From assembly GCA_963823335.1 (NCBI GenBank), contig CAWGLD010000007.1, positions 224,001 to 288,000 on the forward strand: a stretch of 64,000 bases of DNA. Direction: 5' to 3'. The notes beneath the pieces were generated by a model. The model was given only the letters and a program-made list of their open reading frames with translations. It ran no database searches and was not told the origin of the DNA. Position 1 is the stretch's first letter. The number at the start of each line of letters is the position of its first letter. The translations under genes were made by a program, and so were the position numbers. Of the stretch, positions 1-23,396 are shown piece after piece. The DNA is from an uncultured delta proteobacterium. GTDB lineage: Bacteria > Desulfobacterota > Desulfobacteria > Desulfobacterales > B30-G6.

Positions 1-204
1 ATGGCTGTGAGTTTTTTAACAGGAGCCAAATCTTATACATCTGAGGCTAAAATCATTATTACGAGGTTTGAACTCGTTGAGGAGAAGGCTGAAGTTGATG
101 TCTGGCTTAAGGACAAATATTTTGAATCTCTTTTTATGAAAGGTAGCAGTCTGATTAAAGAAAATGGAAATTGGAAATGGTATGGAAATCAAGTTTCAAG
201 ATAA
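1..204 (+). CDS. 3' end of a hypothetical protein (probably truncated by the window edge)
   Basis: Open frame from base 1 to TAA at 204; co-oriented with the downstream cargo genes. Confidence 0.55.
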   Translation: MAVSFLTGAKSYTSEAKIIITRFELVEEKAEVDVWLKDKYFESLFMKGSSLIKENGNWKWYGNQVSR

Positions 205-343
205 CCAATCATCGTATATAGGAAAATGCAGACGGCTATTTGCAGATACTTGCTATATGCTAAACACCAGATGTAGTATGGAGTGATTTCACCAAAGTGT
301 GAAGATTACTGGTATAAATGTTGACCTTGTAGGGTGTTACTAT

Positions 344-500
344 CTCCAACAAAACATTAGATATCAGGCACTTGAAAAATTGCCGATGTGTGAAAATAAT
401 CACAACAGACGAAATCTTGCATTGATAGGCCCTACCGTGGTACCGTGGGTATAATCGAATAGTTCAGTAATTTGAGCAGACCGTTGATCCATGTATCACC
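344..500 (+). repeat. Cassette-delimiting repeat copy R1 (shorter, diverged in its 3' half)
   Basis: ctccaacaaaacattagatatcagg...gccgatgtgtgaaaataatcacaac...aatcttgcattg...tccatgtatcacc; matches R2-R7. Confidence 0.85.
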
Positions 501-669
501 ACCTTGTGTGAGCTTATGACATTGGCAAGCTTAACACTATCTCATTCCTCTGCTTAACCTTTCACACAAGTTATTGACAGTCCATCGAGTTGGAATCTTT
601 ACAATATCAAATTGTGGCATTATTCTTCCTATAGTTTCAGCGAAAACATTGAATGAGAGGAGAACCGAT

Positions 670-978
670 ATGGCAACAATATTATTTGTACGCATCAAAT
701 CCGATCTCGACCCTAAGGAGCTAGAACGTCGATTAATTGAACGCCGACCTCGATTTCATGAGGTGCCGGGACTGGTGCAGAAATTCTATGGACGAGACGA
801 ATCGACCGGTGATGTGTGCGGCATATATTTTTTTGAGGATCAAAATGCGCTCTCAGCTTTTCGCGAAACCGAGTTAGCAAAAACGATTCCGACTGCATAC
901 GAAGCAAAAGAAATTCGACGGGAAGTCTACGAAGTACTCTATCCCTTATATCCTGATCGCGGACCGATTGCAGAATAG
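670..978 (+). CDS. YdhR-like putative monooxygenase (dimeric alpha-beta barrel)
   Basis: ATG at 670 after gagagg; motif 'F.EVPGLVQKFY...GDVCGIYFFED..A...F' typical of the YdhR/ABM superfamily. Confidence 0.7.
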   Translation: MATILFVRIKSDLDPKELERRLIERRPRFHEVPGLVQKFYGRDESTGDVCGIYFFEDQNALSAFRETELAKTIPTAYEAKEIRREVYEVLYPLYPDRGPIAE

Positions 979-1035
979 ATTCTTGTTTGCACCCATATAG
1001 CACATGTTTTTCAGTCCTTTAAAATCTGGTGAAAC

Positions 1036-1201
1036 CTCCAACAAAACGTTAAATATCAACCCCTTAAAATATTACCGGTGTGCGGAAAAAAACAACAAAA
1101 TTTGCATTAATAATGGTCCCCATGCTACCGTGATGATGACCAAATGGTATCGTTAATAATTTGGTTGAGTTTGATAACTGGACATCTCTCCATACATCAC
1201 C
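1036..1201 (+). repeat. Cassette-delimiting repeat copy R2
   Basis: ctccaacaaaacgttaaatatcaacccctta...accggtgtgcg...atggtatcg...gataactggacatctctccatacatcacc; about 7 bp shorter internally. Confidence 0.9.
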
Positions 1202-1329
1202 GGTGGAGGCATTTCAGCATTACTTAGAAACTCTATTGCATTTTGAGCTCTATTGACGTTATAAAAAATAGGGTTATTTTACTTACAGTATTCTTTTTTT
1301 GGAAATAACTTAAACAAAAGGAGGATAAC

Positions 1330-1533
1330 ATGGACTTTGATCATGAGTACGCCAGCTACCTGGATGAAAAAGCTTTGTCTGAAATACAGTTATTGGAGAA
1401 AGAAACTGGCGCAATTATTTTAGCCTATCCAGAACGTCCTTTACATGCTGAACTGCCTAAAACACAATTGGACAAAATTCGATCGTTGGAAAAGAAACTT
1501 TGTGTTAGATTGGTTGCTTTCGAATCGCACTGA
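1330..1533 (+). CDS. small hypothetical protein (67 aa)
   Basis: Strong RBS ggagga before ATG; internal duplication 'L.EIQ.LEK..G..I.AY / L.KIRSLEK.L...LVAF'. Confidence 0.75.
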   Translation: MDFDHEYASYLDEKALSEIQLLEKETGAIILAYPERPLHAELPKTQLDKIRSLEKKLCVRLVAFESH

Positions 1534-1735
1534 AAATTACAGACTCCTCGAACATATGTTAGATCCATGAAGTTTAATGGTTCTTAGCATATCACAACCA
1601 TGGGTATTTTTAGCCCGCCTGCATTTTCAAGTTATCATGGGGAAAGTCGGCCAAGCCGATTTTCCCCTTTTTGCATTTTCGTTAGAAAATTGATATCTGT
1701 AATGGTGATTGTGGCCGGAAAGATTCCTGAATTTC

Positions 1736-1790
1736 ATGGTATCGCAGGATTTTTGAAGGACCTGAAACCGGCTATGTTCTCCATGTATCT
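1736..1790 (+). repeat. Degenerate 3' remnant of the cassette repeat
   Basis: atggtatcg (1736) ... ctccatgtatc (1779); spacing 43 versus 44 in intact copies. Confidence 0.55.
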
Positions 1791-1925
1791 TTATTGCTAA
1801 AATAATTAGTGTTTGTTACTATGACACTCAATTGTTCATGGTCATTGCAAGTCGTTACCAATTAGCCTTAATCATAGGTAACGCATTATTAACTTCTATA
1901 TATTATCTGCGAAGGAGGATGTTCT

Positions 1926-2606
1926 ATGCGAAATGGATTCCCGAAACACCTGAAGATGGTTACGGTATTATTTTGCGTTGGTTTGCTTTTGGCTTTTGTC
2001 CTTAGTTGCAGTGGTGGTAGCGGTGGTGGTGGTGGCGGTGGTGATGATGACGATCAGTCTCTTACAGTCACCGGCAAATCCGGGAATCTTGTTAACTTGG
2101 ATGGTACTTGGGAATCAGAATGTGTAGCCGATATAGCGGATGGTGAGTCAGAAATGTGGGTTATGACTATTTCAGGTTCTACATTTTCACGGAATGATAG
2201 CAATTGGTTTGACTCAACGGACTGTTCTGGAGCATTCGACGTTACAGTGACTATAAGCGGGACAGTCGTTTTGGGGGATGAGCTTACAGTTTCAATGAAC
2301 GGCTCAAATGTTACCGCCACAGAAAATGATATCACACTAAGCTCATATGAAGCCACAATTAATAATCCAGATTTAGTTGCAGGTATAAATGCAGACGAGG
2401 AATGTGGCTTTGATGACTGGGTGGTAGACACTCCCAAGGATCTTCTCGGAACATCTTGTGCGCCTGATTCAGACATAAAGGACGTAGTATATGTCGATGA
2501 CACAGTTGATCCTAACGTTTGGAATAGCGGAGATGGTGAAGGACCAAATGATGTAAATGGCTATCCAGCTGAGATTGATCCAGATACTGCAATGGAGCGA
2601 ATGTAG
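1926..2606 (+). CDS. acidic putative lipoprotein with Gly/Asp low-complexity linker
   Basis: RBS ggagga; signal peptide with lipobox VLS-C followed by poly-Gly and DDDD; very Asp-rich mature domain. Confidence 0.8.
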   Translation: MRNGFPKHLKMVTVLFCVGLLLAFVLSCSGGSGGGGGGGDDDDQSLTVTGKSGNLVNLDGTWESECVADIADGESEMWVMTISGSTFSRNDSNWFDSTDCSGAFDVTVTISGTVVLGDELTVSMNGSNVTATENDITLSSYEATINNPDLVAGINADEECGFDDWVVDTPKDLLGTSCAPDSDIKDVVYVDDTVDPNVWNSGDGEGPNDVNGYPAEIDPDTAMERM

Positions 2607-2638
2607 ATTACTGTGTGGCAGGATGACAATGTGTAATC

Positions 2639-2678
2639 AAATAGTAGCAGCAGGCTTGAACTCCTGCTGCTACTATTT
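2639..2678 (+). terminator. intrinsic terminator-like hairpin
   Basis: Perfect 16-bp inverted repeat aaatagtagcagcagg / cctgctgctactattt just after the 2606 stop. Confidence 0.75.
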
Positions 2679-2824
2679 CAGCAGAGAATCATCAGAATAA
2701 AGATTCTATTTGGTTTGATATATGAGTTAGGGATGTGTGTTTCCATCCATTAAACAGGCGCAGCTGAAGGAGTGATATATCATGGCTCTATTCACTTTTA
2801 TGCTCCTTGTAAAATTGCAGATTT

Positions 2825-2997
2825 CTCCAACAAAACGGTAGATATCAGACCCCTAAAATATTACCGGTGTGCGATTATAATCACAATCGGCCGTTTCTTA
2901 CATTGATGGGTGTTTCCGGTGCACGATTGACATAATTAGATGGTATCGGTAAAATTATTTGATATTCCAAAATGTCAGGTTATCTCCATGTATCGGT
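2825..2997 (+). repeat. Cassette-delimiting repeat copy R3
   Basis: ctccaacaaaacggtagatatcagacccctaaaatattaccggtgtgcg...atggtatcgg...tctccatgtatcgg. Confidence 0.9.
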
Positions 2998-3057
2998 ACT
3001 TGGCTGATATTTGGTTTTCAGACAAGATACCACATGCTTTTCACTTCCAAAAATGAT

Positions 3058-3086
3058 TTGACAATATCAAATAATTGCAGCATAGT
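3058..3086 (+). promoter_or_regulatory. sigma70-like promoter
   Basis: TTGACA-17 bp-CATAGT upstream of the 3309 gene. Confidence 0.45.
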
Positions 3087-3308
3087 TTTTTAAACATACT
3101 TAAAGTTCAGTTGAAACTGGATTAATTTTGTCTTAAATCTACAATTCCTATCGCATCTCTATCTACTGACCTCAATCACAACATCGAGTTGATCTGCAAT
3201 CTGTTCTTCTTTCATTCCTGATCATTTGATTTTCATTACTTTGTGGTGTTGAAAATTCCTTTGGAATTTTCTTTATTGTCAAACAACAAACATTAAAGGA
3301 GTGAAAAA

Positions 3309-3785
3309 ATGAAAGTTTACTCAAGAGTTTTATTCTCTCGAAAATTTATTGTGGTTGTTAGTTTCCTTTTACTTTTTGGTATTTTTATTATGCCTGCCAT
3401 GGCATCTGACCGCTTTGTTAACAATGGCGATGGTACTGTTACAGACACAAAGACTGGACTGATGTGGTCAGCAGCAGACAATGGGAATCACATAAACTGG
3501 AAGGATGCCTGTTCTTATTGTCAAAGTTGCAGTGTTGGCGGCCACACAGACTGGCGAATGCCAACATTGGCAGAACTAAAAAGTCTTTATGCTCCTGTAA
3601 TAACGAACGAATATGGTTACCATATTACTACATTTATAGGTACTACTGCCGAAAGTTGTTGGGCTTCAGAGACTCGTGGCGAGGAAGCTGCCCGTTTTAA
3701 TTTCAGGTATGGGCAAGAGTATTGGCTGCGACAATTTCACTCAGGCTCAGGTAGGGCCTTACCTGTGCGGAATGTTAATTATTAA
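3309..3785 (+). CDS. secreted DUF1566 (Lcl C-terminal domain) protein
   Basis: Signal peptide (AMA-S); 'RFVNNGDGTVTDTKTGLMW', 'W..A..YC', 'GHTDWRMPTLAELKSL' are diagnostic. Confidence 0.9.
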   Translation: MKVYSRVLFSRKFIVVVSFLLLFGIFIMPAMASDRFVNNGDGTVTDTKTGLMWSAADNGNHINWKDACSYCQSCSVGGHTDWRMPTLAELKSLYAPVITNEYGYHITTFIGTTAESCWASETRGEEAARFNFRYGQEYWLRQFHSGSGRALPVRNVNY

Positions 3786-3925
3786 ACCGGATCCTAACAT
3801 TCGGAGATATACAAGTTGTCAGTTGCAGACCGCTCCACGGGGCTGTAACTGTTTTTGATGACACATCACAATTGAATTAGCAGTGAACTTTTAATTTAAA
3901 GAAAAACAGACTTTATGTCGTACAG

Positions 3926-4098
3926 CTCCAACAAAAACAAAGATATCAGACCCCCGAAAAATTGCCGGTGTGCGAAAATAATCACAACAGGTCAAATCTT
4001 GCATTCATGGAGCCTGCCATGCTACCGTGGACATTACCATATGGTATCGGTAAAATTTGCATCGGGCTTGATAACTGGACTTCTCTCCATGTATCACC
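3926..4098 (+). repeat. Cassette-delimiting repeat copy R4
   Basis: ctccaacaaaaacaaagatatcagacccc...gccggtgtgcgaaaataatcacaac...atggtatcgg...gataactggacttctctccatgtatcacc. Confidence 0.92.
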
Positions 4099-4417
4099 AG
4101 TTGACCTATTATTTGACATGCGATTTAGATCTCGTTATATATATTCATCCATATACCGCTACCGCAGAGTCTTACCTGTCATTAACCTGATGACAGGGCT
4201 GATGTGATCCTGATCTTCTGAATTTTCGATCCTCTTGTCATTTTATCCATTATTATATCAACATGTGATCGATATGGAAATTTATCTGATCATAGGATGC
4301 CTGAAGTTTCTGATGTGATGCCTCTGGAGACGATATTATTTCGCTTTGGAGGCCAATTGGGTTGGCAATCATTCGGTCAAATTAGTGAATTTAGGATAAG
4401 AACAGAAGGGGGAAATA

Positions 4418-4765
4418 ATGGCTGACAGCGCTCTATTAATAGGTTGGAATCGCAGTTTTGCAGGTCGAGAACAGCAAGCTATGAAGCTTTTTATGAAAAC
4501 AACTGAATATTACAACCAATTGCAGGATGATGGAAAGATTGAAAACTTTGAACCGGTGTTACTTGAGGGCCACGGGGGTGATTTGAACGGATTTGTATTG
4601 ATAAGGGGAGATTCAGCTAAGTTGGATGAGATCAAAAGGGAGGAAACTTTCATTAGTTATTCGATAGAGGCAAATTTTTGTCTACAAAATTTCGGTATAA
4701 TAAAATGCGTAATTGGAGATGGCTTAACAGATGTATTGACACAATGGTCAAAGCATTTCAGTTGA
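4418..4765 (+). CDS. hypothetical protein (115 aa)
   Basis: RBS aagggg; compact soluble protein 'LLIGW...GRE..A...F...FEPVLL..HGGDLNGF.LIRG'. Confidence 0.8.
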   Translation: MADSALLIGWNRSFAGREQQAMKLFMKTTEYYNQLQDDGKIENFEPVLLEGHGGDLNGFVLIRGDSAKLDEIKREETFISYSIEANFCLQNFGIIKCVIGDGLTDVLTQWSKHFS

Positions 4766-4891
4766 TCAATGAAAGGCATTATCTGTTCGAACAGGCTGGA
4801 GGTCTGAAATGACCTCTGGCCACTGTTCTTTCCAACATCATTTCTGCATCATCTTTATTGAACCAAAAACCCACTGGAAGGTGATCTCAAC

Positions 4892-5020
4892 ATGTCCAAC
4901 AGTGATAGCGAAAAGGTCACACGCAAGCTCTGCTCCATTCTTTCTGCCGATGTTAAGGGGTATAGCCTCCTCATGGCAGATGATGAGGTGCATAGCCGTG
5001 GATATCCAACAAAACGTTAG
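4892..5020 (+). pseudogene. 5' fragment of a class III adenylate/guanylate cyclase truncated at repeat R5
   Basis: Translates MSNSDSEKVTRKLCSILSADVKGYSLLMADDEV, the classic cyclase N-terminus (RKL.AIL.ADV.GYS.LM..DE), then runs into R5 and stops at TAG 5018-5020. Confidence 0.8.
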
Positions 5021-5176
5021 ATATCAGGCACCCTAAAATTTACCGGTGTGCGAAAATTATCACAACAGACGGAATCTTGCATTGTTAAGCCCTACCGTGA
5101 TACCTTCGCGATGACCAGATGGTATCGGTAATTTTATCTGAAAAATTGATAACTGGACTTCTCTCCATGTATCTGT
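5004..5176 (+). repeat. Cassette-delimiting repeat copy R5
   Basis: atccaacaaaacgttagatatcagg...accggtgtgcgaaaattatcacaac...atggtatcgg...gataactggacttctctccatgtatc. Confidence 0.92.
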
Positions 5177-5398
5177 ATTGTGACGAGCTTTGGTTTTACG
5201 ATAATGCGCATCACTGTTTTGATTGTTCTGGAATACCATCTGAAATGGAAGGATAATTTGGGACTATTGATTGCAATGAGAAGGCAGCAAAATCTGCATG
5301 GGGTGATGTGACATATTTCTAAATTAAGTAGCAGTAAACGCCTTGGAAATTCACCATCAAACGCACAGAATATTCTGAGTCACAGCAGGTATCTTTAT

Positions 5399-5974
5399 AT
5401 GATAGATAAAATACCTAACTTATTGAGTGGATTTCGCCTTGTTGCGGCGCCCTTTATGCTTTACCTATCTTGGATAGGTTTACGAAAAACTTTCCTTGCT
5501 TTACTTGTGCTTAGTTTGTTGTCGGATGCAATTGATGGTTTTATTGCGAGAAGACTATACGTTAGTTCTGATATAGGTGCTAAATTAGACAGTTGGGGAG
5601 ATTTGGCAACTTATCTCACAGTGCCGATTTGCATTTGGTGGCTATGGCCAGAGATAGTGAAACGAGAGGCGCCCTTTGTAATAATAATACTCGGAGCATA
5701 TATTGTACCTTTAATAGCTGGTTTCGCAAAGTTTCGAAAACTACCAAGCTATCACACGTGGGGGGCTAAGATAGCTGCAGTTTTGATGGGCATTGCTGTT
5801 TTTGCTCTGCTAATGATAGATATTTCATTGCCTTTCAGATGTGCCGCTTTAGTCCAAGCTTTAGTAGCATGTGAGGAGGTGGCTATTACTTTACAACTGA
5901 AGGAGTTGAAGAGCAACGTTAAATCTATTTGGCACGTTAAACAAATTATTAGCAAAAACCAAAGAGATACATAG
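5399..5974 (+). CDS. CDP-alcohol phosphatidyltransferase family protein
   Basis: 'IPNLLS.FR', 'SDAIDGFIARR....SDIGAKLDSWGD' (D-x2-D-G-x2-A-R...G-x2-LD-x3-D motif). Confidence 0.92.
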   Translation: MIDKIPNLLSGFRLVAAPFMLYLSWIGLRKTFLALLVLSLLSDAIDGFIARRLYVSSDIGAKLDSWGDLATYLTVPICIWWLWPEIVKREAPFVIIILGAYIVPLIAGFAKFRKLPSYHTWGAKIAAVLMGIAVFALLMIDISLPFRCAALVQALVACEEVAITLQLKELKSNVKSIWHVKQIISKNQRDT

Positions 5975-6025
5975 CTCTTAAAAGTTCTTCATAATATTCC
6001 AATTTATGATATCTGGAATTTGGTT

Positions 6026-6056
6026 CAACTGGTAATATTCTCCATCTTTCTGTATT
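6026..6056 (+). repeat. Short degenerate 3' remnant of the cassette repeat
   Basis: caactggtaatattctccatctttctgtatt resembles the R5 end taactggacttctctccatgtatctgtatt. Confidence 0.4.
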
Positions 6057-6152
6057 TCGATGATACTTGGATTATTGACCATATCTCCAAACAGCATTGT
6101 TGGAACAGCAAATAGAGATTAAGAATAAGTAATTTTGTCGAGGGGAAAAACA

Positions 6153-6957
6153 ATGGGTATATTTCAAGATAAGGTAATCATCGTAACTGGAGCGTCCGAA
6201 GGGATAGGACGTTCTTTATGTTTAGCACTTTCTTCTCAGAAACCTAAACTTGTAATGGCCGCGAGAAATAAAGACCGACTTATGCAATTACAGGAGGAGG
6301 TAGAATCTAAAGGGTCAACATCAGTTGTTGTGCCAACTGACGTGAGCGAAGAGAAGGATTGTAAAGATCTTATTGAAAAAACCATTTCAGAATTTGGTCG
6401 TTTAGATGTTCTTGTCAACAATGCTGGCAGAACCATGTGGACAACGCTCGAAGATATGGCAGAACCATCTATTATTGAACAACTTATGCGCATCAATTAT
6501 TTTAGGCGCTGCCTATTGTACATATTATGCACTATCCCACCTGAAAAAAAGTAAAGGACTAATTGTGGGAATTTCAAGTCTTGCCGGTTTGAACGGTGTG
6601 CCAACCCGAACAGCTTATTCAGCGACCAAACATGCCATGTTTGGTTTTTTTGATTCGCTCAGAATTGAATTGATGGGAACCGGCGTTACAGTGACGATGA
6701 TAGCTCCGGATTTCGTTCTCAGTGAAATTCATCGACGTGCATTTGGCAAAGACGGAAAACCGCTTGGATCAAGCCCGTTGCAGGAAGACAAAGTTATGAC
6801 TGCAAATGAATGTGCATCCAGAATTATAAAGGCTATGGAAGACCGGGATCGCCTGGCAATTCTATCATTTAGAGGAAAACTTGGTCGGTGGATGAAGCTT
6901 ATCGCGCCGGGATTTATTGACCAGATAGCTTCAAAAGCAATTCGCGATGCCAAATAG
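6153..6957 (+). pseudogene. short-chain dehydrogenase/reductase (SDR) with a +1 frameshift
   Basis: TGASEGIG and NNAG in one frame, YSATK in another; removing one T from the T run at 6500-6503 restores ...INY-LGA...; could be a sequencing error. Confidence 0.85.
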
Positions 6958-6994
6958 TTGCATGTAGGCAATCTGGCACAAAACCTGGGCACTA

Positions 6995-7157
6995 CTCCTA
7001 TAAAACGGTAGATATCAGACCCCTAAAAATTTACCGGTGTGCGAAAATAATCACAATAGACCAAATCCTGCATTGATAGGGTCTCCCATGTTACGCTGGG
7101 CATGACCAGATGGTATCGGCAATATTTTCAAATTATCGGATAGTTGGACTTGTCTCC
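6995..7157 (+). repeat. Cassette-delimiting repeat copy R6 (interrupted by an IS; remainder at 8938-8950)
   Basis: ctcctataaaacggtagatatcagacccctaaaaatttaccggtgtgcg...ggacttgtctcc|IS|tccattaatcacc. Confidence 0.9.
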
Positions 7158-8937: not shown

Positions 8938-9005
8938 TCCATTAATCACCAGTTTCAGATTCAAGATTAATTAGCGTCTTCAGTTTCGCCAAATTTCCAC
9001 AACCC

Positions 9006-10918: not shown

Positions 10919-11086
10919 CAAGATCTTGTGGTTGCAATGTTTCCATTGTTTGCAAGCCACAGATCGTGGTATCAATAATTTAACATAATGGTAATGTTCT
11001 CCTCATCGCTTTAAACCACGTCATAAGCAATAGGATCTGTAAAATATAATACAGGACAGACTTCATAGAATCCAAAGGGGGTTGAT

Positions 11087-11578
11087 ATGGAAAGTGCAGT
11101 AAGGAAAATATTTATATTGGCAATCATCTCAATAGTGAGCTTTATCTTCACTATTCCAGTTTCAGCAGAGGACATTGAGGAGACCGTCAAATACAAAGCA
11201 CCAACTCTGGATCAGACACTTGGCTTCATCCAGGAAATGACATCGGGAACGTTAGGTTTTGAAGAGGGCGAATGCATACTGATCACCAGTGCTGTAATAA
11301 ACAGGGCTACCTTTGAATATAGAATACCGCTAAAGGAGATCAACCCAAGTCCAGGATCTGTAAAACAGCGCCTGACCTATGTTGACGTTGCCGTGGATAA
11401 CTATAAAAATAAAATTCAGCGCATAGGCAAAGATGGGAAAGAGGAATGGAAAAGCAAAGTGAGTATATGGACTGAAAACGAGTTGTCTGCTAAGCAGGTA
11501 GCAAATGCCTTGCGTTATTTGATCAGCATTTGTGGTGGAAAGACTTGTGTCGATTGTGATCCTTTTCCGTGGCAATAA
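11087..11578 (+). CDS. secreted hypothetical protein
   Basis: RBS ggggg; N-terminal signal peptide (VSA-E); Cys-rich C-terminus. Confidence 0.75.
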   Translation: MESAVRKIFILAIISIVSFIFTIPVSAEDIEETVKYKAPTLDQTLGFIQEMTSGTLGFEEGECILITSAVINRATFEYRIPLKEINPSPGSVKQRLTYVDVAVDNYKNKIQRIGKDGKEEWKSKVSIWTENELSAKQVANALRYLISICGGKTCVDCDPFPWQ

Positions 11579-11662
11579 AGATGATACCATATATTGGGGG
11601 TCTTAAGATCAAGATAAACTGGAGACTTCTAACGTAAATCAATTACCTCGCACCGTGGATGT

Positions 11663-11835
11663 CTCCAACAAAAACAAGGTTATCAACCCCCTAAAAATTT
11701 ACCGGTGTGCGAAAATAATCACAATAGCCCAAATCTTGCATTGGTAGGATCTCCCATGGTACCGTGGGCATGACCAGATGGTATCTGACATTTTCACCCA
11801 TTTTCGGAAAACTGTGGTTATCTCCATATATCGGT
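11663..11835 (+). repeat. Cassette-delimiting repeat copy R7
   Basis: ctccaacaaaaacaaggttatcaaccccctaaaaatttaccggtgtgcgaaaataatcacaa...atggtatc...tctccatatatcgg. Confidence 0.92.
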
Positions 11836-12171
11836 AACGCAGCACCTTTGGGTTTTCTGAATATATTGGCCTTTTTAAACGTCCAAAAAACTCATTTCTT
11901 GACCAATCCCCACAGGTCATGTATGTATCTTATATTGCACCCAAATCTCACCTGATCTGAAGCAGCGTCTCCATAACTGGACCTGAACTGACCTGATTCT
12001 CAATCTGTCCGTACCTTTCTCTTCGTATCATCTTATCTTAACCGCAACCTAATGAACTGAAGGCGATCTCCATGCCCACTAAAGAAAATATCACACGAAC
12101 CATTTAAACCAAGATATTCGATAAACAGGGCACTATTCTACAGTTCAAGAAATGAAAAAGCGGAGGCAATT

Positions 12172-13284
12172 ATGAAAACCACAATTCTTCTAAGTCTAAT
12201 AGGCATAATTATATCGTTAGGTTGTGGCATGACGGCGGCTCAGGCCGAGATCAAGGTTGGTATCGCCGGGCCTTTGTCCGGCAGCTCACTCACTGCGGGC
12301 GAGCAGCAGGAAATCGGCGCTCAAAAGGCGTTCGAACATCTGAATAACAAAGGCGGCGTTCTTGGCAAAGAAATTGTTGTCATCTCAGTGGACGATGCGT
12401 GCGAGCCCCGACAAGCCAAGGCGGTGGCGCGGCAGCTGGTGAGCGAGGGCGTTGTTTTTGTTCTCGGGCACCTTTGTTCCGCCTGTTCCCTTGCCGCCAG
12501 CAAGATTTATGAAGAGGCCGGGGTCATCATGATCTCACCGGCTTCGACCAATCCCAAGGTCACCGAGGAAGGGGGTCCCAATGTATTTCGGGCGATAGGC
12601 CGCGACGATCAGCAAGGCACCATCGCCGGCGACTACCTGGCCGACCATCACGGTAACAGCAAGATTGCCATCATCCACGACGGTCAAGCCTATGGCTTGG
12701 GCCTGGCAGAGTTTACAAAACAGCAGCTGAACAAACGCGGCGTTACCGAGGTTATGTTCGATAGTTACACCGCGGATCAAAAGGATTACAAGTTGATAAT
12801 AAACAAACTCGTCAACAATAAAATAGAGGTTCTCTATGCCGGCGGTTATCTATTGGATATTGGAATTATTATTCGTCAGGCCAAAAAAGAGCTGCCCAAT
12901 CTTCGCTTGTTTTCTGGCGACTCTCTGGTGGATGTCCAGTTCCTGTACGTTGCGGGCGAAGCAGGCGAAGGTACCTATTTTACCTTTGGCCCGGATATGC
13001 GTTTAATGCCGGAGGCCCAAGACGTCGCTGCCGCTATTCGCGAAGAGGATGCTTACGAGCCAGACGGTTATACCTTGTATAGCTACGGCGCTGTTCAAGC
13101 CTGGGCGCAGGCCGTTGAACAAGCGGGTTCCTTGACACCGAAGGCTGTCATCAATGCCTTGAGAACCGGTAGTTTTGACACCGTGCTCGGTAAGATTGGC
13201 TTTGATGAAAAGGGCGATATTACCGGTATGAGCACCTTTGTCTGGTATGTCTTCGACAAGGAAAACTACTCGCCAGTAAAATGA
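12172..13284 (+). CDS. LivJ/LivK-like branched-chain amino acid periplasmic binding protein
   Basis: IKVGIAGPLSG, DDACEP.QA..VA, GH.CS, SPASTNP..TE, GRDDQQG, HDGQAYG.GLA. Confidence 0.92.
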   Translation: MKTTILLSLIGIIISLGCGMTAAQAEIKVGIAGPLSGSSLTAGEQQEIGAQKAFEHLNNKGGVLGKEIVVISVDDACEPRQAKAVARQLVSEGVVFVLGHLCSACSLAASKIYEEAGVIMISPASTNPKVTEEGGPNVFRAIGRDDQQGTIAGDYLADHHGNSKIAIIHDGQAYGLGLAEFTKQQLNKRGVTEVMFDSYTADQKDYKLIINKLVNNKIEVLYAGGYLLDIGIIIRQAKKELPNLRLFSGDSLVDVQFLYVAGEAGEGTYFTFGPDMRLMPEAQDVAAAIREEDAYEPDGYTLYSYGAVQAWAQAVEQAGSLTPKAVINALRTGSFDTVLGKIGFDEKGDITGMSTFVWYVFDKENYSPVK

Positions 13285-13362
13285 TCGGATTGACGAAATT
13301 CTCACCCGGTTTCATACAGGCCCGTAGCTCTTCAAGATGCAGACCAAGAAAATTGACGATAA

Positions 13363-15741
13363 ATGAATAGGTCAAACAAAGATACAAGAATGGGTGTTCG
13401 TGGGCGATTGATGCTTGCGTTTCTGGGCATATCCATGTTTTCACTTATCGCGGCGGTCTCAGGTTTGTATTCCCTGTCGCAGGTTGGCGGCGCACTCAGC
13501 AAGATCACTGATCAGCGCGTTCCCGAAGCGCTGTCCTGGCTGGAGCTGTCAAAACGCGTGGAAAGTCTCGTGCGTGCGGCACCCGCCTTGTTGGTAGTAG
13601 ACAACGATAACGCACGGGTCGAAGTCTCGAACGATATCGTCTCGCAAATCGCACAGCTTGAGCCGTTTTTGCAGCGTAACAGAAGCTTTGAGATAATAGA
13701 GGAAAAAGAATCGATGGCCGCAGTCCTGAGACTGGTCGCCGCCATGACCGATAACCTCGAGCGTCTAAATGAGCTTGTGAAAAAAAGGCTTTCCATTGTC
13801 GCGATCCAAAATAAACGGATTCGCGACCTGTCAATAGCCAATAGTGTAGCCAAAAGAATGCTGGCGCCTGGTGAGCGCATACTCAATGCCCAGATGATGG
13901 ATTGGAGCAGACGCAAGGAAACCGCCGAAGCAAATCTATCGTCAAATGAAAAGTCGGATCTTGTAGATTCGATAATTGACTTGATCCCTCAACAACGGGC
14001 TGCACTACTGGTGGACTCCATTCACAATAGCCTCCTGAAAATCACAGATGCTGATAGCGCTGAACGTATCGATGTCTTGATATTTCCTCTGAAAAAATAT
14101 CTTGAAGAACTGTATGAGGTTTCTCTGGTCGTTTCAAAACGCGCAAAAAGACGTCTTGCAAAACAAATTGCGGTACTTGAGGGTCTGACTGTGGGCCCGA
14201 CAAGTCTTTCGCTGATCAGAGAAAATGAATTGGCCGTCATCGCCCAGGGCGAAGAGCTGTTGGCAGTCAACGTGCGACTGTCAAAGTTTTTGACCCACAG
14301 AGTAGAGTTTTTGGTAAAAAGCGCAAGTTCGGATATTGAGAAAGCGAACCTCCAGGCGGCAACGATACAGGCACTCAACCGCAATATTTTGATCGGCATC
14401 GCCGCTCTGAGCCTCGTGAGCTCCTTCCTCATCGTGTGGCTCTATGTCGGGCGTAATCTGATTGCCAGACTGACTGCACTAAGCGACAGCATGCTAGCGA
14501 TAGCTGGTGGCAACCTCAGGGCGCCTTTGCCGGAACCCGGCAGTGGTGACGAGATCGGCCGCATGGCAGAGTCCCTGGTCGTTTTTCGTGATACAGCAAT
14601 CGAAGTTGCAGAAAACAATTTGCGCGACATTGAAACGGCGCGTCGAAGACTGGTCGATGCCATCGAAAATTCATCCGAAGGATTCGCTTTCTTCGATCCT
14701 GATGACCGTCTGGTGCTTTGTAACACCCGGTATAGGGAATTGATTGACCCGAATACGGACATTGATATTGAACCGGGAACGGCGTTTGAGAATATCATTA
14801 GGAGTGCTGCCAAGAATGGACACATAGTTGATGCAGAGGACCGTATAGACGAGTGGGTTGCAGACCGTTTGGCGTTTCATCATGACCCAGGTGAACCACG
14901 GATTCAGCGACGTAAGGGTGGTCAGTGGCTTTTGATCACAGAACGCAAGACCGGGGATGGCGGAACGGTCGCCATTTACTCCGACATTACGGACCTGAAA
15001 CAGCACGAGGAGGAACTCACGGCAAAGTCGAACACGTTGGAAGAAACCAACAAGAGACTCAAAAAAGCCCAGGAACAAATCTCGAAATACCTCGATCCGA
15101 ATGTAACTGAAAAAATATTCAAGGGTGAATTTACAGCAGAGCTGTCTCACAAGCGAACAAAGTTGACGATGTTTTTTTCCGATATCAAGGATTTCACCCA
15201 ATTTACCGATGCGTCTGATCCTGAAGATGTGGCAAGGTTGCTCAATGAATACTTGGGGGAGATGGCTCAGATCGTCCGGACATGGGGTGGAACCATCCCG
15301 CAGTTTACCGGGGATAGCATTTATGCAATCTTTGGGGCACCTGATTCAAAGGGGAGCCGAAGAGATGCTTTGGCGTGTTTACGTATGGCGTTGGAGATGC
15401 AAATGAAGATGAAAACCCTTCGGGAGAAATGGTGGAACGAGGGTATCCAATTTCCTTTCGAAATCCGATGTGGTATTCATACGGGTATGGCCGATGTGGG
15501 CAATTATGGTTCCGAAGGATTTATGGAATATTCAGCCATCGGCCTGAACACAAATCTTGCTTCCCGCCTGGAACAAGCTTGTCAACCTGGTGAGATATAC
15601 CTATCACATACCTCGTGGGCTTTGGTTAAAGAAGAGATACCTTGCGAGGAAGTCGGCACTATTGAGGTTAAAGGGTTCCACTATCCCATTCAGACATACC
15701 GTGTTCTACAGAATGATGAGGAAATAGCTCTTGAAACTTGA
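13363..15741 (+). CDS. membrane sensor class III nucleotidyl cyclase (TM-periplasmic helical sensor-TM-HAMP-PAS-cyclase)
   Basis: Two TM segments, HAMP (DEIGRMAESL.VF), PAS (LVDAIE...EGFAFFD.DDRLVLCN.RY), cyclase (FSDIKDFT, GD, CGIHTG, NLASRLE). Confidence 0.9.
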   Translation: MNRSNKDTRMGVRGRLMLAFLGISMFSLIAAVSGLYSLSQVGGALSKITDQRVPEALSWLELSKRVESLVRAAPALLVVDNDNARVEVSNDIVSQIAQLEPFLQRNRSFEIIEEKESMAAVLRLVAAMTDNLERLNELVKKRLSIVAIQNKRIRDLSIANSVAKRMLAPGERILNAQMMDWSRRKETAEANLSSNEKSDLVDSIIDLIPQQRAALLVDSIHNSLLKITDADSAERIDVLIFPLKKYLEELYEVSLVVSKRAKRRLAKQIAVLEGLTVGPTSLSLIRENELAVIAQGEELLAVNVRLSKFLTHRVEFLVKSASSDIEKANLQAATIQALNRNILIGIAALSLVSSFLIVWLYVGRNLIARLTALSDSMLAIAGGNLRAPLPEPGSGDEIGRMAESLVVFRDTAIEVAENNLRDIETARRRLVDAIENSSEGFAFFDPDDRLVLCNTRYRELIDPNTDIDIEPGTAFENIIRSAAKNGHIVDAEDRIDEWVADRLAFHHDPGEPRIQRRKGGQWLLITERKTGDGGTVAIYSDITDLKQHEEELTAKSNTLEETNKRLKKAQEQISKYLDPNVTEKIFKGEFTAELSHKRTKLTMFFSDIKDFTQFTDASDPEDVARLLNEYLGEMAQIVRTWGGTIPQFTGDSIYAIFGAPDSKGSRRDALACLRMALEMQMKMKTLREKWWNEGIQFPFEIRCGIHTGMADVGNYGSEGFMEYSAIGLNTNLASRLEQACQPGEIYLSHTSWALVKEEIPCEEVGTIEVKGFHYPIQTYRVLQNDEEIALET

Positions 15742-16027
15742 AACTGAATTTAATAAATAGCAGTGTATTACAGCCAAATTATGCAGATCAAAATAGTGCG
15801 ATCCAACTCATCAACGGTGCAGGGGCCTTCTGAAAAGTTGTGATATCCACTTTCTTCTGGAAAAGCGATAAAACCTACCTGCCTTGACAGGTTGACATAA
15901 AGTAGATCTTCCTTGGATCTAACATGCCAATTTACGCGTCATTTCAGCCAGGTGCGTTACTCGCGGCTATCTTACGGATTCAAAATTTTAAAAGAACTAT
16001 GACCGGGAATGAACCTACCCAACTATT

Positions 16028-16252
16028 TTATTCCGCATTTAGCGAAAATACTTGAGCAAGGTTTGGCTCCTCCATTATGGAATCCAAATCTATGTGGCTA
16101 TTAAATATCACCGCTAAATAGACTCGGATCCCATCAGCGCGGGCTTGATCATACTCGCTCTCATAAATTATCTTCATGAGAATACCCTCCATTGCAATGC
16201 CCGTTTCAGCTTCTATTCTCTGTGCTGCCAAATACATGCGTTTCGCCTGCAA
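16028..16252 (-). CDS. small hypothetical protein downstream of the integrase (start uncertain)
   Basis: Open frame that extends upstream to an in-frame ATA just after a ggagg RBS, so the start codon may be mutated. Confidence 0.35.
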   Translation of the reverse strand: MQAKRMYLAAQRIEAETGIAMEGILMKIIYESEYDQARADGIRVYLAVIFNSHIDLDSIMEEPNLAQVFSLNAE

Positions 16253-16496
16253 GTCACTGATTTCAATAATTTCTTCTGATATTTCAAGTCCTCCTATTTA
16301 GTTTTTCCACCCCTCATAATCTCAAGAGCCAGATCCGGTCTAGGCGGCGGCAAACCAAAGCGTGGACCGCACATTATATTACTGACATTGACATTGCTTT
16401 CTGACACTCTCTTGCCATAGTAAATTCTTTAAACAGCTTTGCACAAGCTATCCGGTCCCGTAAGGGCACCTTATCTACCCCTATCCCAGAGAAGCC

Positions 16497-17624
16497 TTAT
16501 TTCTTTCCTGGACTCATGGTTTCATTAAAAATTTCACTAGCCACATCAGCTGCCCGTTTAAGTGCCTCATCTCTTAAGTGTGCATACCGCTGCGTCATTT
16601 TCGGATCTTTATGCGTGAGTAGTTTCTGCAGTGTATATATATCCACTTTACCGCTGGAAGCCATGAAGGAGGCATAAACATGCCTTAGGCCATGGAGCGG
16701 CCTGAATCCCTTCGGCAACCCTGCGGCGATTTTTATTTTATTTGTCGCCTTCCCAATATTTACCCTCTGGCGTCCCCCTCTCCCTGGGAATACATACTTG
16801 CTGGTTTTAGGATGTCCGTTTAAGAGCTTTCTGGTAGACTCGTTCATAGGGATAATCTGATCCGGCCCGCCTTTCGGATCCAAGATTTTAATAAATCCTC
16901 GCTCGAAATCAATATCTCTCCATTTTAATTTGAACATTTCACCGCGCCGCATACCGGTATAAAGAGCCATTTTCATCATAGGTCCGGCTTGGGCATGATT
17001 GTCATTCTCAATCGCTTGAAGGAGCTTCTTGAGTTGCTCCTGTGTCAGATCTTCAGTTTTCTGATTGTCGACAGATGGTATTTTGATACCAAATGAAAAA
17101 TTGCTACATAGTCCATGATCTGACCCGAATTTAACGATCCGCTTAAAGAGCTTTAAAACATGAGAAACGGTTTGGGGGGACCGTTTTTTCAAGAGCTTCA
17201 ATCGCAGACGGTCAACATCCAAAGGCAGAATCTCAGAGGGTTCTTTGTTACTAAATGATGGTTTTATGTGGAGATCATATTGACTGTTATATGTTTTCCA
17301 GCCCTTGAGGTGAGGATTCTGTTTTTTGTATTCTTGCCACAAGCGGTCGATGGTCCACTTACCCTCTTGGGCTTTCTTTTCTTTCTCCATCTTCTCTCTT
17401 TTTTCTTTTCTGGTAAGACGCTTCCCCTCTATAAGCTCTCCACGTATCCGAGCAGCCCTTGCCGGTGTCATGGCATCACGATATTGACATCCGACCTTAG
17501 TTTCGATAGTTTTGCCATCCAATTTATAGACCGCATAATATACGCGCTCTATTCCATGACGACCCTTACGAGTTTTTGTTCTAAAATAAATACCCGGATA
17601 CAGGGTCTTGATTCTTCCCTGCAT
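16497..17624 (-). CDS. tyrosine recombinase (phage/island integrase)
   Basis: Catalytic R (TGMRRGE), K (PKGG), HxxR (HGLRH), H (LLTH) and Y (TQRYAH) all present; N-terminal arm-binding-like region; no obvious IntI-specific insertion. Confidence 0.95.
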   Translation of the reverse strand: MQGRIKTLYPGIYFRTKTRKGRHGIERVYYAVYKLDGKTIETKVGCQYRDAMTPARAARIRGELIEGKRLTRKEKREKMEKEKKAQEGKWTIDRLWQEYKKQNPHLKGWKTYNSQYDLHIKPSFSNKEPSEILPLDVDRLRLKLLKKRSPQTVSHVLKLFKRIVKFGSDHGLCSNFSFGIKIPSVDNQKTEDLTQEQLKKLLQAIENDNHAQAGPMMKMALYTGMRRGEMFKLKWRDIDFERGFIKILDPKGGPDQIIPMNESTRKLLNGHPKTSKYVFPGRGGRQRVNIGKATNKIKIAAGLPKGFRPLHGLRHVYASFMASSGKVDIYTLQKLLTHKDPKMTQRYAHLRDEALKRAADVASEIFNETMSPGKK

Positions 17625-17720
17625 TGCACCTCCAATTTTTGTAGGTATGGACTTACGGCTGGAAAATTCAATAGGACAAATAAAAGCTAAAAACTAAATG
17701 AATAGAGGTTGAAACCATAT

Positions 17721-17742
17721 TTTTCCAACCACTTTTCCAACC
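17721..17742 (+). repeat. tandem 10-bp direct repeat TTTTCCAACC, putative integrase arm-type sites
   Basis: Two copies (17721-17730, 17733-17742) between the integrase start and the tRNA fragment. Confidence 0.55.
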
Positions 17743-17867
17743 TAAAAGGACTATATCAGATTATAAAAAATTATGTCAATATTTTTTAATTTGATTATTA
17801 TCTCTTATTTATAGGTAGTTAAGTATTAGAAGTTATAAAAGAGTACAATAACAAAATGTATATATTT

Positions 17868-17917
17868 TCAGCCTCCGGAGCTGAAGGTCGCGCGCTCAAC
17901 TTGCGCCGGGCGTACCA
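17868..17917 (+). tRNA. degenerate 3' half of tRNA-Arg(CCG); island attachment site (attR-like)
   Basis: Anticodon arm tcagc-ctCCGga-gctga, mutated T-arm gcgcg-ctcaact-tgcgc, acceptor 3' strand and CCA; 5' half absent. Confidence 0.82.
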
Positions 17918-17944
17918 TAATAACAAAAAGGACTTATGATTATT

Positions 17945-23200: not shown

Positions 23201-23380
23201 AACATTAGACGCGGCAGGACCTTTTGGCCCTTGCTCTATGTCAAAGGAAACTTGATCGCCTTCATTGAGGGATTTAAAACCATCAGCGTTTATTCCTGAA
23301 TGATGAACAAATACATCCGATCCATTTTCCTGCTCAATGAATCCGAATCCTTTGTGGTCGTTAAACCATTTAACAATTCC
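23201..23380 (-). pseudogene. cold-shock protein (CspA-like) remnant lacking start and normal stop
   Basis: Translates [60 protein letters not shown]; no in-frame start nearby; absent from the ORF track. Confidence 0.85.
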
Positions 23381-23396
23381 ATATTTATGGCAGTTG

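Follow-up and report, generated by a model that had tools for sequence, protein, structure and literature searches.

We describe here a direct repeat of ~172 nt that is rather likely to be the junction site of an integron-like gene-cassette system built from different parts. Seven copies lie in a 64,000-nt stretch of DNA (the window) from an uncultured delta proteobacterium, a sulfate reducer of sediments, and the whole 36-kb array holds 19 co-oriented copies. Between successive repeat units lie bodies, a body being taken as the stretch from the R point of one unit to the L point of the next, where L and R are two fixed points of the repeat at which homology between bodies stops. To our knowledge, integrons are the only well-understood platform for capturing single-gene cassettes, resting on a single clade of enzymes and a single kind of site, an unusual hairpin, and our literature search found no published description of the present system. 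The array and its surroundings in the window contain the following features.

341..512, + strand, junction repeat copy 1, R core degenerate (GATCCAT), nhmmer E=5.3e-44
574..978, + strand, cassette body: YdhR-like gene (PF08803)
1034..1215, + strand, junction repeat copy 2, nhmmer E=8e-45
1330..1533, + strand, cassette body: small ORF of 67 aa, no family; terminator-like hairpin downstream (1639-1667)
1735..1796, + strand, R-arm remnant of the repeat, R core intact (TCTCCAT at 1778), nhmmer model positions 120-182, E=0.01
1926..2606, + strand, cassette body: putative lipoprotein without a Pfam family
2822..3013, + strand, junction repeat copy 3, nhmmer E=2.5e-50
3014..4095, + strand, unit of recent duplication, made up of a leader, the Lcl_C/DUF1566 gene (3309-3785) and the entire next repeat
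3923..4113, + strand, junction repeat copy 4, nhmmer E=4.9e-56
4418..4765, + strand, cassette body: ORF of 115 aa, no family
5002..5192, + strand, junction repeat copy 5, nhmmer E=5.9e-56
5399..5974, + strand, cassette body: CDP-alcohol phosphatidyltransferase (PF01066)
6026..6106, + strand, weak remnant, R arm and core (TCTCCAT at 6039), from the repeat search and nhmmer (E=0.37 only)
6406..6957, + strand, cassette body: truncated SDR (PF00106, profile positions 109-189 only)
6993..7167, + strand, junction repeat copy 6 (nhmmer), R core split by an insertion sequence (IS)
7156..8950, + strand, IS bounded by terminal inverted repeats, DDE transposase of 501 aa (7300-8805)
9006..10885, - strand, group II intron with RT/maturase ORF 9110-10432, 5' limit at or beyond 10885 (RF02005, RF00029; PF00078, PF08388)
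11087..11578, + strand, cassette body: ORF of 163 aa, no family
11659..11850, + strand, junction repeat copy 7, which closes the array, nhmmer E=1.1e-54
12172..15741, + strand, periplasmic binding protein and HAMP-PAS adenylate/guanylate cyclase, no repeat behind
16497..17624, - strand, tyrosine integrase of the tRNA-Arg island, 375 aa (PF00589)
17863..17917, + strand, 3' half of tRNA-Arg(CCG), the distal direct repeat of the island

An earlier note on this DNA had reported the seven copies and two 3' remnants, and all seven were recovered on the + strand by nhmmer (E=5e-44 to 5e-56) and by a repeat search. Its first remnant (1736-1790) is supported; the second (6026-6056) retains the core word TCTCCAT, but the nhmmer match, at 6056-6106, is weak. 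The array continues past the left edge of the window, as the note expected, with 12 further co-oriented copies (C7:199781-224341). When the genome and its relatives were searched with a model of the repeat, as the note had proposed, the genome gave 84 matches, 59 of them full length, which a 15-kb gap rule placed in 17 groups, about 10 being multi-copy arrays; among 14 genomes in the same family, 11 also carry the repeat. Identity between copies is 65-85%, and the arrays have a GC content of 41.6-45.3% vs 48.8% for the genome. Across this genome and the relatives' loci examined, which were sampled only at places with repeat matches already known, 134 of 141 adjacent pairs are co-oriented. TCTCCAT occurs 12 times on the + strand and never on the - strand in window positions 1-18000, vs four times on each strand in the other 46 kb. 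This one-sided count and the co-orientation of the repeats are far beyond chance.

When bodies are compared in different contexts, within and between species, homology stops at the same two points. L reads TCTCC/AACAAAA, followed by GATATCAG, with breaks at or after TCTCC; R reads TCTCC/AT-NN-ATC, lies 159 nt beyond L, and is broken inside TCTCCAT-NN-ATC. The distance is exactly 159 nt in 84 of the 110 copies with both edges located. The duplicated unit at 3014..4095 matches C7:213.6-214.7 kb with ~99.7% identity, beginning and ending in TCTCCATGTATC; the identity spans one R core to that of the next repeat, and the repeats upstream are only 69% alike. Among pairs of copies, 33 (~7 independent families) share only the downstream flank, four only the upstream flank, two the upstream flank and the repeat, and one the repeat and the downstream flank. 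Not one pair has both flanks in common; the order of genes is thus completely shuffled. Between species, the unit's interior is co-inherited with neither neighbor, a pattern that also suits a model with the unit itself as the mobile entity. Bodies common to this genome and genomes G001, G005, and G007 are 94-99% identical; the identity of the housekeeping adk-rpsU-Mur ligase genes with relatives is 82-91%. Cargo content and order, whose variation between strains the earlier note had wanted examined, differ completely between relatives. Metagenome contigs gave no recombination product, only short-sided repeat-repeat joints of a kind that cross-matching copies can yield. Relatives of one cargo gene are encoded at 80 metagenome loci, 0 of which contain the repeat, so this one-gene comparison added no independent contexts.

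Bodies have a median length of ~1.9 kb and usually hold one gene or a short operon behind a leader of median ~196 nt. In 103 bodies, ORFs of at least 100 aa run along the repeat direction in 184 cases and against it in 26 (94.7 kb vs 16.5 kb). The promoters of their own (TTGACA) once attributed to some cargo genes find no statistical backing, as promoter-like sites are at chance level (36 found vs 29.6 ± 5.7 expected), and so are terminator-like sites (9 vs 9.3). Some proposed cargo assignments need revision. The SDR gene does match PF00106, but as a fragment, and the binding protein and cyclase cannot be counted as an established cassette, since no repeat lies behind them and the pair in G007 occupies another locus free of repeats. 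A group II intron at ~9006-10885 on the - strand, absent from the earlier gene list, lies ~55 nt downstream of the IS-split R core, antisense to the array. The presumed secreted protein at 7300-8805 is in fact the DDE transposase of that IS, which is inserted in the R core with a duplication of TCTCC. Both genome copies of the IS occupy the identical R-core position (2/2); the IS is a parasite of the site and not cargo.

The entire array lies inside a ~43-kb tRNA-Arg(CCG) island, whose tRNA-Arg direct repeats confirm the location first proposed. The intact tRNA gene is at C7:198846-198921, ~25 kb left of the window, and the 3' half at 17863-17917 is identical to it in the anticodon arm and acceptor end and different in the T arm. 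The integrase beside this 3' half is intact, as reported. Its homologues were found in 0 of the 14 same-family genomes, 11 of which bear the repeat, so it probably does not operate the array. The best reading is that it serves the island as a whole and has no link to the repeat family. The earlier interpretation is supported as to a platform for gene cassettes or accretion whose site is not attC, and unsupported as to the enzyme.

The repeat sites probably belong instead to a ~277-aa Xer-like tyrosine recombinase whose gene, at C1:163.8-164.8 kb outside the window, lies antisense inside one repeat copy. At both ends this copy agrees with the short unit; the difference is an internal segment (model positions ~66 to ~112), and some other copies hold other inserts at the same two internal positions. 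The gene is nested between repeat arms in four genomes of three families (G000, G001, G015, and G210), and arm similarity declines along with recombinase identity. The complete genome G392 encodes a recombinase 71% identical, and the sequences on either side of its gene form a repeat family in their own right (L arm, at least 40 matches; R arm, at least 17); diverged recombinases appear to be accompanied by diverged sites. The recombinase carries an N-terminal SAM-like, core-binding domain and a catalytic domain but no arm-binding domain, which makes it a simple (Xer-like) tyrosine recombinase in the classification of PMC8138268. A 278-aa homologue with a continuous frame matches PF00589 and PF02899. 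The best NCBIfam match is archaeal XerA (124 bits, under its cutoff of 220), and the best solved relatives are XerA and XerD, with IntI not among them. Against the IntI model TIGR02249 (cutoff, 265 bits), the nested locus scores 21.2 bits, its 225-aa ORF 28.3 bits, and a full-length homologue 52 bits, over profile positions 16-179 only.

Full reading of the recombinase requires a one-base slip on an A9 run. A homopolymer run is at the same place in 23 of 30 recombinase loci, the frame change at the run was verified in seven genomes, and three homologues without the run have a continuous frame. The run could also mean that most recombinase copies are switched off or decaying instead of recoded. 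Homologues of at least 57% identity are present in 7 of 13 repeat-bearing relatives, three of them partial or interrupted (a partial match in G004, stop codons in G011, and one TGA in G015), and among 27 relatives that lack this repeat, seven have homologues of at least 49% identity. No homologue was found in G003, G005, G013, or G014, and G012 has fragments only; across the order, 72 of 401 genomes have a member of the family. In G000 the recombinase-bearing master copy stands first, upstream, in its sub-array, and in G001 it opens a contig; no distinct attI was recognized.

From these features we infer how the system may work. The nested recombinase, with its core-binding and catalytic domains, would exchange strands at matching points of two units, pairing R with R or L with L, and so excise a circle of one body and one unit, which would re-insert at any other unit. 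Arrays would thereby grow, shrink, and reshuffle, and with either point usable, a unit would keep neither neighbor over time. The slip on the conserved A9 run, presumably transcriptional, would hold the recombinase level low.

Several known kinds of site do not describe the repeat. It is not attC, as the non-attC reading had held: RNAalifold gave no consensus structure on either strand for 59 copies, its ends are direct and not inverted copies of TCTCC, and no IntI is encoded in the genome, where the best TIGR02249 score (88.5 bits) falls at a Xer gene. Its single-stranded DNA folds are no better than those of shuffles (z = +0.40 and -0.24), and no Rfam family matches it. The marks of a MITE or insertion sequence are missing as well. 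Terminal inverted repeats are lacking (one end vs the reverse complement of the other, 6.5; shuffles, 5.76 ± 1.32; 46 copies), the words flanking the unit are conserved rather than variable, and 0 of 110 in silico unit-removed queries found a clean empty site in G000 and ~0.7 Mb of relatives' loci. In accretion anchored at tRNA genes, junction repeats duplicate the tRNA 3' end or the att site of the island integrase; here 0 of 46 tRNA genes match any repeat copy, and the island integrase was found in none of the 14 same-family genomes. Neither L nor R has a clear inverted pair of binding arms or an 11-6-11 dyad visible by eye, and the body-side flanks are nearly information-free.

The most serious rival, which we nonetheless consider unlikely, makes the unit itself mobile: a gene-less miniature of a ~1.1-kb recombinase-only element, related to it as a MITE is to its parent IS, that inserts site-specifically between passive genes of already variable islands. 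The recombinase copy with the ends of the short unit, the other inserts at the same internal positions, and the strict 159-nt length all suit such an element, as do two edges that are both junctions around an interior that follows neither neighbor between species. Yet no clean empty site was found in G000 and ~0.7 Mb of relatives' loci, and the sole match spanning any of the 110 unit-removed joints is 76% identical and overlaps another repeat copy. Nor would free insertion give the polarity of the arrays (184 vs 26 ORFs, 134 of 141 neighbors co-oriented), and the genes themselves are reshuffled at these edges, with no pair sharing both flanks. Recent duplications, moreover, took gene and unit together, and the unit has no terminal inverted repeats.

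Two further explanations are weaker. In the first, which seems very improbable, a selfish or structural repeat in dispersed copies would make the arrays hot spots for ordinary homologous recombination, and no site-specific enzyme would be dedicated to them. The copies are numerous and 65-85% alike, and the contigs examined gave no recombination product; but such identity over ~170 nt makes a poor substrate, breaks would be expected anywhere in the repeat whereas all pairs inspected break at its two conserved edges, and in four genomes from three families the unit holds a nested recombinase gene. Slighter still is the chance that the repeat is a regulatory module (promoter, terminator, insulator, or 5' leader RNA) of an accessory-gene regulon. 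It does stand upstream of each gene, co-oriented, and a few copies have good downstream-pointing sigma-70-like matches (e.g., window 2927-2955 and 4028-4056). Against this, 59 copies gave no consensus RNA structure on either strand, single-strand folds were no better than those of shuffles, Rfam had no match, the numbers of promoter-like and terminator-like sites stay within what chance gives, a cargo gene has relatives at other loci that do without the repeat (0 of 80), and the break points and nested recombinase would be left unexplained.

The preferred reading, an integron-like cassette system, can be set beside known systems. Integrons consist of IntI, attI, and an array of attC cassettes, with sedentary chromosomal integrons and CALINs included. 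attC is an imperfect single-strand hairpin with complementary R''/L'' and L'/R' boxes, IntI has a characteristic extra segment in its catalytic domain, and attI and a common promoter Pc lie beside the integrase gene, with promoterless cassettes. The present arrays resemble integrons in their long runs of unrelated, co-oriented, mostly single-gene units with one site family between them, duplicated and reshuffled with boundaries at a fixed point of the site. The candidate enzyme is likewise a simple tyrosine recombinase without an arm-binding domain, its gene running against the cassettes, and arrays occur, like CALINs, also in genomes where the recombinase was not found. Unlike attC, the site is not a hairpin, its ends are not complementary, its sequence and length are conserved, and it has two break points where attC has one. 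The candidate enzyme resembles Xer and reaches 21-52 bits against the IntI cutoff of 265, its gene lies within a site copy and not beside attI, and it needs the A9 slip; bodies are larger and leaders long. The reference for integrons, including sedentary chromosomal integrons and CALINs, is PMC4889954. Integron sites are also parasitized, by the IS1111-attC and group IIC-attC elements that PMC3001079 describes; here, too, other mobile elements specialize on the site, the IS lying in the core in 2/2 copies and the group II intron close to it and antisense to the array.

Other comparisons are more distant. CIME/ICE accretion and tycheposon-type islands arise by tandem accretion of integrative elements at tRNA genes. 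They too align integrase-less gene blocks head to tail with direct att-site repeats between, and the array likewise lies within a tRNA-bounded island, but here the junction repeat is not tRNA derived, the units are single genes and not multi-kb elements, and the island integrase is unlinked to the repeat. In IMEX elements and Acinetobacter plasmid pdif modules, the host's XerC/XerD act on dif-like sites of 28 bp, in which an arm for XerC and one for XerD flank a 6-bp spacer; the sites are often paired in inverse orientation. The likeness is that simple Xer-type recombinases move small gene modules between short sites; here, however, a dedicated candidate exists besides two Xer genes (on C3 and C5), and the site is ~172 nt and in direct order. 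IS/MITE pairs share the pattern of a gene-bearing master and many short gene-less copies with the same ends, but terminal inverted repeats, variable target duplications, and empty sites are missing here, and the candidate enzyme belongs with the tyrosine recombinases instead of the DDE or DEDD transposases.

The findings point to a second, undescribed way of gathering and shuffling genes in bacteria. We are evenly balanced on the fuller claim that Desulfobacterales possess a second, independently built gene-capture system, in which an A9-throttled Xer-like recombinase gene inside its own site would act on a double-stranded ~172-bp site with two alternative crossovers 159 bp apart (~15 helical turns), and self-expressed cassettes would be exchanged between species. 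Recoding of a tyrosine recombinase at an A9 run is unusual; slippage-controlled expression is known mainly from IS transposases (PMC1088944). The system offers testable parts for recombination tools, namely one small recombinase and two short core words, and if true could be a source of new, sequence-defined tools. Integron-finding software would miss it entirely. If the reading is true, cassette capture evolved more than once, and much of the strain-level variation in gene content among abundant sediment sulfate reducers would be explained. With the recombinase family in 72 of 401 genomes of the order and apparently diverged sites in G392, this could be a major unnoticed route for accessory genes in marine sediments.

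The earlier note had listed seven copies of the junction repeat, a direct repeat of ~172 nt with two fixed break points, L and R. All seven are genuine: repeat finding assigns them to one family on the + strand, and a profile built from the copies matches them with E values of 5e-44 to 5e-56.

Junction repeat copies in the window, from the profile built from the copies
341-512, + strand, repeat copy 1
1034-1215, + strand, repeat copy 2
2822-3013, + strand, repeat copy 3
3923-4113, + strand, repeat copy 4
5002-5192, + strand, repeat copy 5
6993-7167, + strand, repeat copy 6
11659-11850, + strand, repeat copy 7

Two remnants had also been proposed; the one at 1735-1796 (+ strand, E = 0.01) was recovered, and that at 6026-6106 is weak (core word at 6039, profile E = 0.37). 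The array was expected to run past the left edge of the window, which spans C7:224001-288000 of the studied genome (G000), and 12 additional copies lie there, giving a complete array of 19 copies in the same orientation at C7:199781-235850. A genome-wide profile search of G000 returned 84 matches, 59 of them full length, which a 15-kb gap rule places in 17 groups; about 10 of these hold several copies in an array and lie on contigs C1, C4, C5, C7, and C9. With one copy as the BLAST query, the repeat was present in 14 of 41 genomes, namely G000, 11 of 14 other family members, and 2 genomes from other families of the order; three members of the same genus (G006, G008, and G009) gave no match. 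Copies are ~75-86% identical, within genomes and between genomes alike, so the repeat is not the recent burst of one element.

Array statistics cover G000 and ~0.7 Mb of loci from its relatives. Neighbouring repeats share their orientation in 134 of 141 pairs, and the 103 inter-repeat bodies (the gene or genes lying between one unit's R point and the following unit's L point) hold 184 open reading frames (ORFs) of at least 100 aa along the repeat direction and 26 opposed to it. Bodies have a median length of 1,940 nt; the first co-oriented ORF starts a median of 196 nt past the R core, and the next repeat follows the last stop codon after a median of 96 nt. A promoter and terminator scan scored only at chance level and lends nothing to the idea that cassettes carry their own promoters.

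The repeat is neither an attC site, nor a MITE with inverted ends, nor a tRNA-derived att repeat, as established by tests of its structure, its ends, and the tRNA and integrase genes of the genome. A structured RNA or attC hairpin was rejected: RNAalifold found no consensus fold for either strand in 59 copies, and a single copy treated as single-stranded DNA had z scores of +0.40 and -0.24 relative to shuffles. Rfam yielded no family for the repeat at the gathering or E-value threshold, the sole match being to a group II intron. The repeat ends are TCTCC in direct, not inverted, copies, and none of the genome's tRNA genes matches the repeat. An integron integrase was not found in G000, where the top TIGR02249 score (88.5 bits; cut-off, 265) belongs to an Xer gene. 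Lacking both a consensus hairpin and an integron integrase in its genome, the repeat is non-attC, as originally described.

The array was also correctly placed within a classical tRNA island, ~43 kb long, with an intact tRNA-Arg gene and a distal 3′ half.

Ends of the tRNA-Arg island
C7:198846-198921, intact tRNA-Arg(CCG) gene, between the adk/rpsU/Mur ligase housekeeping genes and the first repeat
Window ~17863-17917, second copy of the tRNA-Arg 3′ half, with identical anticodon arm and acceptor end and a different T arm

The 3′ half adjoins a 375-aa tyrosine integrase, which had been put forward as a possible array enzyme and was rejected on its distribution. None of the 14 family genomes, 11 of which carry the repeat, encodes a homologue of this integrase (E ≤ 1e-20), which makes it an improbable driver of the arrays; its relatives occur in other families. 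The binding protein and cyclase reported after the last repeat are present as a pair, but with no repeat behind them they are not counted as a cassette of the system. The pair (a periplasmic binding protein and a PAS-cyclase, window 12172-15741) is 94% identical in the relative G007 at another locus (L053, G007:C13:15075-18703), which has no junction repeat and whose flanking genes are neighbours at G000:C1:483840-497912, arguing that the pair moves by some other route. A different repeat of ~180 nt at window 23203-23383, with many matches in both orientations in G001, G002, G004, G005, and G007 (72-87% identity), is probably an unrelated MITE-like element.

The cargo of the C7 array is functionally unrelated and comprises a URO-D-like enzyme, a SUI1 protein, a GDSL lipase, a pentapeptide protein, an MFS transporter, a DnaJ-domain protein, a nickel superoxide dismutase, a YceI-rhodanese protein, an acyltransferase, two Lcl_C proteins, a DUF2141 protein, two serine-hydrolase-like proteins, an alpha/beta hydrolase, a thioesterase, YdhR, a CDP-alcohol transferase, a truncated SDR, and several family-less ORFs. 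The SDR cargo (window 6135-6957) is a fragment in two overlapping ORFs covering only Pfam profile positions 109-189, and contigs of three sequencing runs omit one base at 6500; either this cassette is decaying or the assembly is in error there. The array also contains mobile elements, one of which, earlier taken for a secreted protein, is an insertion sequence (IS) transposase whose element has inverted ends and interrupts the R core with a duplication of TCTCC.

Mobile elements associated with the arrays
Window 7156-8950, IS with inverted ends and a 501-aa DDE_Tnp_1_6 transposase, in the TCTCC/AT core, TCTCC duplicated
C4:535468-537262, sole other copy of this IS in G000, 97% identical, in a lone core at the identical position, TCTCC duplicated
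Window 9006-10885, - strand, complete-looking group II intron with Rfam D1-D4 and D5-6 matches and a 440-aa RT/maturase ORF
C7:217467-218663 (L022:5468-6661), IS110-family (DEDD) transposase gene, inside one long body between two hydrolase genes

Because both G000 copies occupy the same core position, the sequences suggest an IS specialised on the junction core, much as IS1111-attC elements are on attC. The settling of mobile elements in integron attC sites is known (PMC3001079), and the elements in the junction site recall those. The group II intron lies ~55 nt downstream of the IS-bearing core, antisense to the array. The body with the IS110-family gene may mark the loss or splitting of a junction unit.

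Several partial repeat matches are interrupted at ~66 and ~110 of the model, and one repeat copy on contig C1 contains an Xer-like recombinase gene, whose product is the candidate enzyme of the arrays.

Recombinase gene nested in the repeat
C1:163769-164846, antisense to the repeat, tyrosine recombinase gene (PF00589) between the two repeat halves

Its terminator and upstream region fall inside the repeat arms, and a truncated second copy on C9 has the same left joint. The same nesting occurs in G001 (recombinase 98% identical) and in two genomes of other families, G015 (84%, with one TGA in the copy) and G210 (87%). G375, G087, G392, and G264 show only a weaker R-arm match, beside recombinases that are 69-88% identical. 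The flanks of the recombinase of G392, a complete genome, form a repeat family of their own, with at least 40 L-arm and 17 R-arm matches, several as L-R pairs ~160-200 nt apart and some in small clusters, which suggests that enzyme and site diverge together. At G000:C1:110103-110345 and C4:176404-177042, the repeat centre (model positions ~67-110) is replaced by 105 and 499 nt, respectively; as these are the same two internal positions that bound the recombinase gene, the unit centre is a replaceable slot.

Across the order, the recombinase family reaches E ≤ 1e-60 in 72 of its 401 genomes and 47 of its 174 genera. Only some of the repeat-bearing genomes yielded the recombinase. The gene changes frame after a run of A's in G000, G001, G002, G015, G037, G007, and G010; 23 of 30 recombinase loci have such a run, of 8 to 10 A's, at the same position, and three homologues without it have a continuous frame. 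A natural continuous homologue of 278 aa comprises a SAM-like core-binding domain and a catalytic domain and falls under every curated NCBIfam cut-off (XerA, 124 versus 220 bits; IntI, 52 versus 265 bits); the closest solved structures are archaeal XerA and XerD. The enzyme is a "simple" tyrosine recombinase in the terms of PMC8138268, where the rejected IntDes subgroup is a separate group that occurs in Desulfovibrio and has an arm-binding domain. An HU-like gene was dismissed as a fixed partner of the recombinase, being present at only 2 of 33 loci (in G024 and G007) and beside the truncated C9 copy. At the latter (L020, G000:C9:36155-37800), the recombinase is followed by a lysine/alanine-rich histone-H1-like ORF with 87 aa of AAKKP-type repeats and by the HU-like gene.

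The Lcl_C/DUF1566 cassette of the window has a second copy 13.4 kb upstream. The two are ~99.7% identical from the TCTCCATGTATC ending one repeat to the TCTCCATGTATC of the next, a stretch that covers the leader, the gene, and the entire following repeat; the repeats upstream of them are only 69% alike. Both edges were located in 110 copies, using TCTCCAAC as the L word and TCTCCAT as the R word, and are 159 nt apart in 84 of these. When all pairs of copies were scored for a shared upstream flank, interior, or downstream flank, 33 had the downstream flank alone in common (~7 independent families, one 9-copy family giving most) and 4 the upstream flank alone. Upstream flank and interior were shared by 2 pairs, both recent duplications inside one genome, and interior and downstream flank by 1 borderline pair; no pair shared both flanks, and gene content and order differ completely between relatives. 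On base-by-base inspection, shared downstream bodies start inside TCTCCAT-NN-ATC and shared upstream bodies stop at or just past the TCTCC of TCTCCAACAAAA. The clearest case is a methyltransferase-like body, 99% identical between contig C4 of G000 and G001, which is bounded at these points and flanked by repeats of background similarity only. From the break points and pair classes, we infer that genes are reshuffled as units reaching from the R point of one repeat to the L point of the next, that the downstream repeat travels along in recent copies, and that gene order is wholly unconserved between species of one genus. A module of ~250-800 nt that begins exactly at the R core (from G000:C1:96373; also in the fetched loci L049, L037, L059, L060, and L035) recurs in 9 or more cassettes from four genomes, with differing genes behind it, and in G000 overlaps an antisense ORF of 131 aa.

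Most likely, two junction units undergo site-specific exchange at like points. This exchange would release circles of one body and one unit, which could re-enter at any junction unit, and either L or R could serve as the exchange point. This choice of points would account both for the downstream unit retained in recent duplicates and for older comparisons, which tie the unit to neither neighbour. TCTCC is followed by AACAAAA at L and by AT-NN-ATC at R; if these are overlap regions, exchange of L with R would be disfavoured, which fits the lack of tandem units (closest spacing, 492 nt). Clear dyad symmetry was not seen in either site. The main rival explanation, that the short unit is itself mobile as a gene-less derivative of the recombinase-bearing copy, accounts for the two active edges but explains neither the polarity of the genes, nor their complete reshuffling at the unit edges, nor the lack of any clean empty site in G000 and ~0.7 Mb of relatives' loci.

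Parts of the window are contained in public reads of 20 runs from 9 studies. In contigs of 4 runs, the joints between repeats extend just 20-32 nt to each side, a pattern that cross-matching copies or other organisms can yield. The repeat was absent from 80 metagenome loci encoding relatives of the Lcl_C cargo (≤81% identical), kept from 113 confirmed loci in a set that possibly leaves out records of this genome or very near ones. In the openly available full-text literature, no description of such arrays or of a recoded nested recombinase was found.

Between genomes, shared bodies reach 94-99% identity, against 82-91% for the adk-rpsU-Mur ligase genes of the same genomes, and the arrays have GC contents of 41.6-45.3%, versus 48.8% for the genome. 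The excess of body identity over housekeeping identity, together with the low array GC content, points to recent horizontal exchange of the bodies.
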